Below, one piece after another: positions 2,129 through 3,887 of a stretch of 8,995 bases of DNA. The first letter of the stretch is position 1; each line of letters starts with the position of its first letter. The DNA comes from a virus: positions 1-8,995 of IMG/VR virus record IMGVR_UViG_3300032030_000807; one strand, 5' to 3'. Both the position numbers and the translations under genes were made by a program. The notes under the pieces were generated by a model, which did not search any database, was not told the origin of the DNA, and worked only from the letters and a program-made list of their open reading frames with translations.

Positions 2129-2875
2129 TCAGTATTTCAGCAGGTTCAGCCGACTCATCAGCTGATCCACGGGTGTACCTTTGTGTTCTGCAGAGACCTT
2201 CTGCATCAGGCTCTGCATGGTTGCTGCACGGGAATAAGACATTGCCGTGAGGGTGTCCTCCTTCAGCTCATCCTCATCCGGTGTATCTTCATCGCCCTCG
2301 TCCGGATCCTCCTCCGGCTTCTGCTGTCCGCTTGCGAACAGGATGCCGTCCACCAGTCCGAGGGACTGCGCCTTTTTCGCATTCAGCCAAGTTTCCTCGT
2401 CCATCATGCGGGCGATCTTGCTGCGGCTCATACCGGACTTCTCCTCATAGGCATTGATGATGCTTTCCTTTACCTCGTCCAGAAGCTCGATTGCCTTCTG
2501 CATCGCTTCCTTATTGCCGAAAGCGACCGTCGAGGGATTGTGGATCATCAGCATACCGGTCGGTGCGATCAGTGTTTCGTCACCAGCCATTGCAACGACA
2601 GAAGCAGCACTTGCCGCAATGCCATCGATCTTGACCGTGACTTTGCCCTTGTGGTTGCGGAGCATGGTGTAGATCTGCGATGCGGCGAACACATCCCCGC
2701 CGGGTGAATTCAGCCAGACGGTGAGGTCGCCGCTGACCTTCGCCAGCTCGTTGCGGAACATGGCAGGCGTGATCTCATCGCCGAACCATGTGTCTTCCGA
2801 GATGGGTCCGTTGAAGATCAGCTCGGCAGCACCGGTGTCCTCATTTCGCACCCAGTTCCAGAATTTCTTATTCAT
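2129..2875 (-). CDS. ClpP-like (S14 family) prohead / head-maturation serine protease
   Basis: I start this gene at the internal ATG at 2875-2873 (MNKKFWNWVRNEDTGAAELIFNGPI...). An AGGAGG SD lies 8 nt upstream. The longer track ORF (to 3244) would overlap the preceding gene in another frame. Motifs: LNSPGGDV, GIAASAASVVAMAGD (Ser nucleophile region) and MIHNP (His). The C-terminal tail is acidic. Confidence 0.9.
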   Translation of the reverse strand: MNKKFWNWVRNEDTGAAELIFNGPISEDTWFGDEITPAMFRNELAKVSGDLTVWLNSPGGDVFAASQIYTMLRNHKGKVTVKIDGIAASAASVVAMAGDETLIAPTGMLMIHNPSTVAFGNKEAMQKAIELLDEVKESIINAYEEKSGMSRSKIARMMDEETWLNAKKAQSLGLVDGILFASGQQKPEEDPDEGDEDTPDEDELKEDTLTAMSYSRAATMQSLMQKVSAEHKGTPVDQLMSRLNLLKY

Positions 2876-3887
2876 CAGCACATTCCTCCTTTGCTCGATA
2901 GTCCACGCCGATATAGTCCAGCACCTTTCCAAGCCCCAGACCTTTGTTGTCCGGCTGCCATACACCGTCCACATCTGCACCGCCGCCGATGCAGTAGTCG
3001 TAGATCTTCGGGTGTGTTGCCGACAGCTTCTGAAAACGGTTAGGTGCTTTTTCAAGATGGCAGCCGAACATACAGAACATACATCCTGTGCGCTCTGCGC
3101 CGGTCGTGTGGTACTTCCCGTTCTCGTCCATAAAAATATCCCCATACACAGAAGCGTAGGGGATCTGCCGGGTGTATAGATATTCCAGAACATCCTGCTC
3201 TGTCCAAAAGGACATCGGCTGCGACCTCGGACGCTTTGCATCAAAGGCGTTGCAGCCGTGGATCAGCCAGTGTTCTTTTCGCAGCCGAGACTCACAAGCC
3301 ATAGTTGCTACGATCGGAACTCGACCGGTCTCTTTTTCATACTGCTTCATCGGGTTCTTTTTCATGACAGAGCAGCATTCCGAAGAACAGCGGAACGGAG
3401 CGTCCAGCAGGAACTTCCACTTTTCGCAGTTGTACTGACTCTTTTCGCCGTTCTTATCCAGCGCCAAGCCGCACAGCTTCTGGTAATCGCCGTGATTCTG
3501 CTCACGTCCCTCAGCGATCGCAACTCGTGCATACTGTACACGGCGGCTTACTTCTTTCGACACCACCGGGTAGCCGTATTTCTGAATGACCTCACGAAAG
3601 TTCATCTTCGGGCGGACGATCGTGACGTCATCAAACGACTTCACAAATTCCCTGATCTCCGGAAATTCCAAACCGGTATCGGCAAACACGGCAGGCACAT
3701 CATAGACACCGGGCGTATTGCGAATGATGTCCAGCAGTACTGTGCTGTCCTTTCCGCCAGAGAACGAGCAATACACGTCGCCGCCAAAATGATCATACCA
3801 GCCTCTGATACGATTTTGCGTCATGCGGATCTTTGCATCCAGCGGCAAACACTGCATCTGGTAGAGGTCACTGATCTGATGTCTCAT
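2868..3887 (-). CDS. PAPS-reductase-family PP-loop ATP pyrophosphatase-like enzyme with cysteine clusters (DndC / IbrA / CysH-like superfamily)
   Basis: PP-loop SFSGGKDS lies near the N-terminus. A CESRLRK motif matches the E-S-x-x-R pattern of PAPS-reductase-like enzymes. Cysteine clusters are CSSECCSV and TGCMFCMFGCH. The preferred start is the ATG at 3887 (MRHQISDLY...), with SD GAAAGGAAGGTGAT placing the GG core 8 nt upstream. The track ORF starts at GTG 3896. The gene overlaps the portal stop by 20 nt, and its stop overlaps the protease start by 8 nt (gctgATGaaTAA). Confidence 0.85.
   Translation of the reverse strand: MRHQISDLYQMQCLPLDAKIRMTQNRIRGWYDHFGGDVYCSFSGGKDSTVLLDIIRNTPGVYDVPAVFADTGLEFPEIREFVKSFDDVTIVRPKMNFREVIQKYGYPVVSKEVSRRVQYARVAIAEGREQNHGDYQKLCGLALDKNGEKSQYNCEKWKFLLDAPFRCSSECCSVMKKNPMKQYEKETGRVPIVATMACESRLRKEHWLIHGCNAFDAKRPRSQPMSFWTEQDVLEYLYTRQIPYASVYGDIFMDENGKYHTTGAERTGCMFCMFGCHLEKAPNRFQKLSATHPKIYDYCIGGGADVDGVWQPDNKGLGLGKVLDYIGVDYRAKEECADE

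Follow-up and report, generated by a model that had tools for sequence, protein, structure and literature searches.

The present analysis concerns a gene of the viral record IMGVR_UViG_3300032030_000807 (IMG/VR), which encodes a 339-residue protein and sits between the portal and prohead protease genes of an HK97-type head module. Positions 1 to 8,995 of that record, a stretch of 8,995 nucleotides, are called here the window. The gene (2868-3887, minus strand) encodes a PP-loop protein of PHROG 424, the '3′-phosphoadenosine 5′-phosphosulfate (PAPS) reductase family' that includes lambda NinC. Because NinC and the vibriophage protein p0018 share 33-39% identity with it in the PP-loop region only, it forms a distinct subfamily of this known, widespread and biochemically uncharacterised NinC-like phage family. 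With moderate confidence, we favour the view that the protein is a stand-alone adenylating enzyme of the sulfur-transfer type, with a putative [4Fe-4S] cluster, used for nucleic-acid modification or counter-defence. Its sequence features speak for adenylation at the expense of ATP by an enzyme whose cluster is ligated by cysteines, and against a PAPS or adenosine 5′-phosphosulfate (APS) reductase. Modification of nucleic acids or counter-defence is the role to which the genomic contexts of its homologs and a single published experiment point.

The gene and its protein family

The gene runs from an ATG at 3887 to a TAA at 2870-2868 on the minus strand and its product begins MRHQISDLY, as seen in the list of open reading frames (ORFs) and by direct reading. 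An alternative GTG at 3896 would add three residues; ATG 3887 is the start that agrees with the N-termini of homologs in the alignment. A Shine-Dalgarno-like AAGGAAGG is found at 3896-3903, 8 nt before this ATG and inside the 3′ end of the portal gene. The start of the gene overlaps the end of the portal gene by 20 nt (3868-3887, minus strand) and its end overlaps the start of the ClpP-type protease gene by 8 nt (ATGAATAA, 2868-2875, minus strand). Both overlaps are identical in a 94%-identical ortholog carried by a prophage (L085), and the boundaries, length and overlaps agree with the original prediction, made by a model from the sequence alone. No promoter- or terminator-like site was found on the gene strand between the gene and the portal or protease genes, so the three genes would be co-transcribed.

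The gene is real and under strong purifying selection. The ratio of nonsynonymous to synonymous substitutions (dN/dS) is 0.059 when compared with the 94%-identical ortholog. With orthologs of about 80% identity, synonymous sites are saturated (proportion of differences, pS, about 0.76) and the nonsynonymous proportion pN is 0.13-0.15. The GC content of the gene, 0.51-0.52, is slightly lower than that of the flanking head genes (0.55-0.61), as may be expected of a gene acquired from another source. A search for the exact protein sequence returned no record.

Conservation was evaluated on an alignment of 40 sequences with 54-94% identity. A canonical PP-loop, SGGKDS (residues 43-48; 3744-3761, minus strand), the predicted ATP α-β pyrophosphatase motif, follows a strand at residues 38-41 of the structural model, so that the SGGxDS arrangement of PP-loop ATP pyrophosphatases is present. 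S43, G44, G45, D47 and S48 are invariant and K46 is conserved in at least 90% of the sequences. The ESRLR segment (residues 199-203; 3279-3293, minus strand), in which E199, S200 and R203 are invariant, corresponds to the Arg loop with which this fold binds a nucleotide or phosphate. Invariant cysteines are those of the Cys171-Cys172 pair (3372-3377, minus strand), C212, C299, and C269 and C272 of the CMFCMFGCH segment (residues 269-277; 3057-3083, minus strand; C269-x-x-C272-x-x-x-C276-H277). In the same segment, H277 is also invariant and C276 is at least 90% conserved. Thus, the SGGKDS, ESxxR and CMFCMFGC motifs initially proposed are confirmed. The proposed CSSECC cluster reduces to its CC pair, the first cysteine, C166, being variable. 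The cysteine pattern nevertheless looks compatible with Fe-S binding, as had been suggested. Taken together, the invariance of the PP-loop, of the Arg loop and of six cysteines and the low dN/dS argue for retained enzymatic chemistry.

Membership of the PAPS-reductase superfamily, also part of the original prediction, is clear from the Pfam PAPS_reduct match (PF01507; 65.5 bits for a gathering threshold of 22.5). The phrog_424 profile matches residues 10-300 with an E-value of 6.7e-50; the same profile recovers lambda NinC at 1e-89 and p0018 at 2e-69. An exhaustive search among 50%-identity clusters gave 849 with E<=1e-30, and 3321 when the limit was relaxed to E<=1e-3; a word-based homolog search returned at least 8000 matches. 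The hosts are mainly gut Clostridia (Oscillospiraceae, Lachnospiraceae, Christensenellales), with other phyla scattered. Annotations of the PHROG 424/NinC family are already common, so that the gene stands out less than was implied at first. Among ten longer homologs, one carries an HTH_17 domain and one (P0159) is a PAPS_reduct-TerL_nuclease chimera. An N-terminal ParB fusion, suspected from the 460-position PHROG profile, occurs in none of the ten.

By every curated model, the protein falls outside CysH, APS reductase, CysD, DndC, IbrA and BrxP. No NCBIfam model reached its cut-off, and those for CysH, PAPS reductase, APS reductase and CysD scored 16-36 bits against cut-offs of 154-413. The CysH models gave 29.8 versus 165 (TIGR00434), 23.7 versus 254 (TIGR02057) and 33.2 versus 154 (NF002537); the APS-reductase model TIGR02055 gave 16.4 versus 235.3; the CysD models gave 31.9 versus 396.6 (TIGR02039) and 36.1 versus 195 (NF003587), and no cysN was present in the contexts examined. 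The best NCBIfam matches are the uncharacterised archaeal models PRK13795 and PRK08557, around the PP-loop only. With these scores, the canonical PP-loop and no C-terminal ECGLH motif, the protein does not group with assimilatory CysH, in line with what had been anticipated. On the other hand, the proposed affiliation to DndC, IbrA or the type 4 BREX protein BrxP did not hold. DndC models, including TIGR03183, gave no match at E<=1 in NCBIfam or PADLOC, and DUF3440, the IbrA domain, gave none in the Pfam scan. The PADLOC BrxP model matched with 52 bits over residues 31-85 only, about 55 of its 779 positions, and SspD with 31 bits over residues 41-104 only.

Aligned with known members, the protein shows a C-terminal extension, which is conserved, and a helical insert of about 60 residues (at about residues 100-165). 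AlphaFold2 yields a high-confidence model (pLDDT 93, pTM 0.87). Its top structural matches are CysH, APS reductase and CysD, with TM-scores of about 0.4 (normalised on the query) and 0.6 (on the target) and 15-18% identity. TtuA, FAD synthase, LarE and GMP synthase come next, and structural matches as a whole are 13-18% identical. By sequence, the relatives in the PDB are CysD and APS/PAPS reductases, with marginal E-values. In the HMMER alignment to the Pseudomonas aeruginosa APS reductase 2goy, the CC pair aligns with Cys139-Cys140. The alignment stops before the second ligand pair, Cys228/231, to which C269 and C272 presumably correspond; the GCxxC motif is present and invariant in homologs.

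Genomic placement, neighbours and the head module

The portal-gene-protease order is found only in the closest clade, at 77% identity or more (77-94%), in phages of Ruminococcus and Oscillospiraceae. This clade comprises the Ruminococcus phages NatCom_29429 and NatCom_23091 (Ca. Heliusvirales), a Ruminococcus prophage (GCA_900109435.1), and IMG/VR and metagenome contigs, all with identical overlaps. Relatives with homologous head modules (TerL about 71%, portal about 66% identical) have the portal followed directly by the protease, as had been stated to be the normal order. Their own copy, of about 51% identity, is found some 5 kb upstream of TerL, where the genes follow one another as HNH, TerS, NinC-like gene, ParB-N6_N4 methyltransferase. 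Homologs of 50-74% identity lie in early, replication or pre-terminase regions. More distant copies occur as the first early gene after a cro-like switch, between YqaJ and C5-methylase/RecT, beside SSB or DnaC, in the nin-like region of an Enterobacter phage and in the replication region of a Clostridioides difficile phage. Some members directly follow TerS, with overlaps of 9-13 nt. In one case, 12 nt separate a TerL gene, 61% identical to that of the window, from the 90% homolog that follows it (L106, 2331-3329, on a 3.4-kb contig of an Oscillospiraceae metagenome-assembled genome); this homolog is split into two overlapping ORFs, by a frameshift or an assembly error.

Because the other homologs are early or replication-module genes, late expression beside packaging genes, from which the original prediction had argued, is specific to the lineage and is not a trait of the family. 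Most plausibly, the slot between portal and protease is one of several places where a mobile accessory cassette has landed, and in one clade of Ruminococcus phages the gene has been kept there under strong purifying selection. An intragenomic move from the pre-terminase slot is unlikely, the pre-terminase copies of the same lineage being about 51% identical versus 67-74% for copies in unrelated methyltransferase islands. The occurrence of the 74% and 67% copies in such islands suggests acquisition by recombination instead of internal relocation.

Neighbours were surveyed by tblastn with neighbour representatives, in addition to pre-annotated contexts. The 74% homolog has N6_N4, Dam (D12) and C5 methyltransferase genes on its flanks. 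The 67% homolog belongs to a prophage, in a dense island of counter-defence genes with Tad5, Mom, Lar, an N6_N4 methyltransferase, MT-A70 and a C5 methylase (L096, 663-11117). With the 62% homolog, these copies directly adjoin genes of this set (N6_N4, Dam, MT-A70 and C5 methyltransferases, Mom, Lar, Tad5). Over 99 loci, the density of detectable methyltransferase genes is 0.089 per kb within 3 kb and 0.025 per kb farther away, a 3.5-fold difference. A methyltransferase lies within 3 kb at 37 of these 99 loci, in many cases within 500 bp, and at 16 of 80 genome loci. The most frequent neighbour cluster is a ParB_N-N6_N4 methyltransferase. In the prophage carrying the 94% ortholog, a single gene for ParB_N and an N6_N4 methyltransferase lies about 9.4 kb upstream of the PAPS-like gene and about 5.5 kb upstream of TerL. 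Hence, the reported lack of a ParB-type partner is true of the window and does not extend to this close relative. As had been noted, the Pfam scan finds no DndA, DndD or DndE homolog in the window, and dndD, dndE, dndA and dndB were seen neither there nor in the annotated contexts of homologs. The sulfate assimilation genes cysD, cysN, cysC, cysI and cysJ were likewise found in none of the contexts examined. Beyond the 67% island come a PhdYeFM/ParE toxin-antitoxin pair and then a serine recombinase gene.

All recognisable genes of the window are on the minus strand and, from Pfam matches and the ORF list, make up an HK97-type packaging and head module with, in order, TerL (6563-8179), the portal (3868-5172; Phage_portal PF04860, E 4e-126), the ClpP-type head maturation protease (2129-2875; CLP_protease PF00574, E 2e-32), an HK97-fold capsid protein (914-2113) and a gp6-like connector (645-917). 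A head completion protein is encoded at 292-645. Immediately upstream of TerL, a DUF7678/phrog_4709 gene (8219-8515, minus strand) is kept at this place in relatives too. No small terminase subunit is recognisable in the window.

Between TerL and the portal, a very acidic ORF of 164 residues (5922-6416, minus strand) has no Pfam or PHROG match. Its C-terminal half is rich in D and E, and a counterpart with 28% identity occupies the same place in a relative (L007). Its composition recalls that of DNA-mimic anti-restriction proteins. An AT-rich gap of about 750 nt (5173-5921) separates this ORF from the portal start. GC content is 39% at 5100-5700 compared with 55-60% elsewhere in the window. 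No convincing ORF occurs on the gene strand of the gap, which has promoter-like hexamers on both strands. An Rfam scan of the window gave nothing at the gathering threshold; the only signal below it, for a group I intron at 5639-5793 (minus strand, 16.8 bits), is probably due to chance. In relatives, the TerL-portal junction holds other cargo, either a 305-residue gene on the opposite strand or a 254-residue gene with DUF6900. Among close relatives, a reverse transcriptase of the group II intron type (RVT_1 and GIIM) occurs in the tail module (L086 to L090; about 15265-17121 in L086). In the closest ones, Amidoligase_2 and GGACT (gamma-glutamyl cyclotransferase-like) genes lie upstream of TerL (L085, 2256-4239; L001, 154-1817), accompanied by DUF3846, DUF4314 and DUF6900; they constitute a second unexplained enzyme pair of this phage lineage.

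Possible activity and competing explanations

Canonical PP-loops mark ATP pyrophosphatases, as established for DndC, TtuA and CysD, and the phosphorothioation literature describes DndC, SspD and BrxP as PP-loop ATP pyrophosphatases with 4Fe-4S clusters. Considering these properties, the following mechanism may be envisaged. The SGGKDS loop would bind ATP and an oxygen of a nucleic-acid or nucleotide substrate would be adenylated, with release of pyrophosphate. A [4Fe-4S] cluster held by C171, C172, C269 and C272, with C276/H277, C212 and C299 close by, would carry or position sulfur provided by a host cysteine desulfurase. Displacement of the adenylate would then yield a thio-modification, as in the chemistry of DndC, SspD or TtuA-type enzymes. 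Such an activity may serve to modify phage nucleic acids or to interfere with modification-dependent host defences (Dnd, Ssp, BREX-4, restriction-modification). The gene would thereby share a functional class with the orphan methyltransferases, Mom and Lar that accompany it in related phages. In the lineage of the window, the cassette would have landed between portal and protease, where it would share a transcript and translational coupling with the head genes; its product would hence be made late, during packaging of replicated DNA.

The experimental indication of a counter-defence role comes from vibriophages. When p0018, a fusion of a PAPS domain with Dam, and its neighbour p0019 were moved into a sensitive vibriophage, growth on a Dnd+ host was observed (Piel et al., preprint 10.1101/2021.05.05.442762). 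PAPS reductases have also been described in Aca-regulated anti-defence operons, in a study where the vibriophage Dnd-escape result is cited (Feussner et al., 2026; PMC13551039). The idea of DNA modification or anti-restriction contained in the original prediction thus finds support in this escape and in the methyltransferase, Mom, Lar and ParB-methyltransferase contexts, and the chemistry is what we infer from the motifs.

Several points weigh against this reading. p0018 and NinC, 33-39% identical to the window protein in the PP-loop region only, have one cysteine in place of the CC pair. The vibriophage work did not separate the PAPS domain from the Dam domain or from the neighbouring gene (10.1101/2021.05.05.442762). 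Known phosphorothioation requires a nucleoside triphosphatase (NTPase) partner, DndD, SspC or BrxC, and gut isolates in which a PAPS-domain gene occurs with none of these partners lacked phosphorothioation (PMC12914056). The contexts of the present family likewise showed no NTPase of the DndD/E, SspB/C or BrxC type. A cysteine desulfurase, which would be the analogue of DndA, is rarely near homologs (4 of 84 viral loci, at 4-6.6 kb, and 1 of 80 genome loci), and such a partner was rejected as a general feature. The proximity of methyltransferases could reflect a shared accessory-gene slot instead of a shared function, and the surveyed loci are phylogenetically non-independent. The lack of the known phosphorothioation partners is therefore a real objection to simple phosphorothioation by the phage. 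A bolder version of the proposal, which we hold as doubtful, is that the subfamily would be a self-sufficient DNA thiolase, placing a phosphorothioate or a thio-base on phage DNA without the DndD/E, SspB/C or BrxC-type partners on which every known phosphorothioation system depends, and doing so during head filling in the lineage of the window.

Among the alternatives, a possible though not likely one is that the substrate is not DNA but an RNA, in particular a tRNA, a free nucleotide or a cofactor. In this case, the protein would thiolate or adenylate its target in the manner of TtuA, NcsA, TtcA or LarE and would tune translation or a metabolite pool. TtuA, NcsA and LarE, which combine a PP-loop with a [4Fe-4S] cluster, are indeed among the significant structural matches and, like the window protein, these enzymes largely stand alone; moreover, the variable early or late position of the gene does not require a link to DNA packaging. 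However, the Pfam scan reveals no recognisable RNA-binding domain (THUMP, PUA), the protein is closer by hidden Markov models to PAPS_reduct, BrxP and SspD than to tRNA thiolases of the ATP_bind_3 type, and its recurrent neighbours act on DNA.

It may also be imagined that the protein is a decoy or hijacker, a look-alike of DndC or SspD which mainly binds the host Dnd, Ssp or BREX-4 partners, or the sulfur relay, so as to disable or redirect the host system, and makes no product of its own. That a related PAPS-domain protein neutralises Dnd would fit, as would the absence from phage contexts of the partners needed for autonomous phosphorothioation. We regard this possibility as unlikely in view of the PP-loop, Arg loop and six cysteines kept invariant across 54-94% identity with a dN/dS of 0.06. 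Furthermore, the 849 clusters at E<=1e-30 represent a far wider distribution than expected for a counter to defences present in a few percent of genomes.

A quite unlikely explanation is that of a genuine auxiliary metabolic gene (AMG), encoding a (P)APS reductase that would produce sulfite for host sulfur assimilation. It draws on the best structural matches, CysH and APS reductase, on the CC...CxxC arrangement, which is the cluster signature of APS reductases, and on the nearly invariant C276-H277 after the CxxC motif, which could in principle replace the ECGLH nucleophile; phage PAPS reductases are also treated as sulfur AMGs in the literature. However, the CysH and APS-/PAPS-reductase models, whose cut-offs are 154-254 bits, scored 16-33, and the protein is 15-18% identical to solved enzymes and about 120 residues longer. 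Its PP-loop is canonical, whereas the loop is degenerate in reductases working without ATP, and the C-terminal ECGLH is missing. In place of cysD/N/C/I/J, the neighbours are genes of DNA methylation, recombination, replication and packaging. Finally, the virome papers that label phage PAPS reductases as cysH-type sulfur AMGs do so without experiment, and one notes hosts lacking the downstream pathway.

Direct participation in packaging or in the assembly of the head, suggested by the portal-protease slot with overlaps conserved across the whole clade, by members directly after TerS and by the 90% homolog 12 nt after TerL, is highly implausible given that homologous head modules lack the insert and carry the gene elsewhere, that many homologs are in early or replication modules, and that the protein has an enzyme fold and no structural-protein features.

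These considerations bear on virome annotation, as the phage 'PAPS reductase' is among the most reported AMGs of gut, bee and environmental viromes, where it is cited for the reprogramming of sulfur metabolism. For the subfamily of the window, the cysH AMG label is probably wrong, because of the canonical PP-loop, the missing CysH tail, the failed sulfur-assimilation models and the company of DNA methyltransferase and anti-restriction genes. If nucleic-acid modification or the disarming of a defence were confirmed, the family would be a counter-defence class of wide distribution, with more than 800 clusters at 50% identity, whose biochemistry is still unexplored. If it were a self-sufficient DNA thiolase, many 'cysH AMG' calls in gut viromes would be mis-assigned epigenetic or counter-defence genes. 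The insertion in a head operon offers a natural system for asking whether modification is timed to packaging.

Comparison with known systems

CysH and APS reductase provide the best matches of solved structure, and the CC pair aligns with the cluster ligands of APS reductase. However, E. coli CysH has a degenerate SSSFGIQ at the PP-loop position, no cysteine at the CC or CxxC positions, and a C-terminal ECGLH nucleophile (...RECGLHEG) where the window protein ends in a different conserved domain. The latter is also about 120 residues longer, is 15-18% identical and has no cys-operon context. Its ESRLR aligns with RREQSGSR of CysH and with RRDEEKSR of CysD, which has an SIGKDS loop but no Cys motifs.

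IbrA belongs to the same PAPS_reduct superfamily, and ParB-domain genes recur near members of the window-protein family. Unlike IbrA, the window protein has no DUF3440, and the nearby ParB domain, part of a methyltransferase fusion that lies about 9.4 kb away in this lineage, is not of the IbrB type. The likeness to DndC, SspD and BrxP lies in the superfamily PP-loop, these enzymes being ATP pyrophosphatases with a Cys-ligated 4Fe-4S cluster. In contrast, the DndC models do not match the window protein, the BrxP and SspD matches are confined to the PP-loop region, and no DUF4007, DndD, DndE, SspB, SspC or BrxC partner was found in the contexts seen.

Within PHROG 424, the PAPS-Dam fusion p0018 (phage 36E38.1/44E38.1; Piel et al., 2022) is the sole family member with a phenotype, the escape from host Dnd. 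Its PAPS domain is coupled to a DNA methyltransferase by fusion, as many homologs of the window protein are by adjacency. It differs by being of the NinC subtype (SGGRTS, single Cys, GNCxFC), with 33% identity over 63 residues, and by its fusion to Dam, tested jointly with the neighbouring gene.

As for lambda NinC itself, identity reaches 39% over the PP-loop region of about 70 residues only. NinC has SGGRTS, a single Cys and GNCxFC, whereas the window protein has SGGKDS, the CC pair, the helical insert and the C-terminal extension. NinC is encoded by a delayed-early gene of the nin region, the window protein by a gene of the head operon. Like the gene of the window, ninC is a dispensable-looking accessory gene of a temperate phage. 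The two proteins share PHROG 424, the fold family, the PP-loop, a DTG motif, a Cys before a conserved Lys, the Arg loop and the G-C-x-x-C motif.

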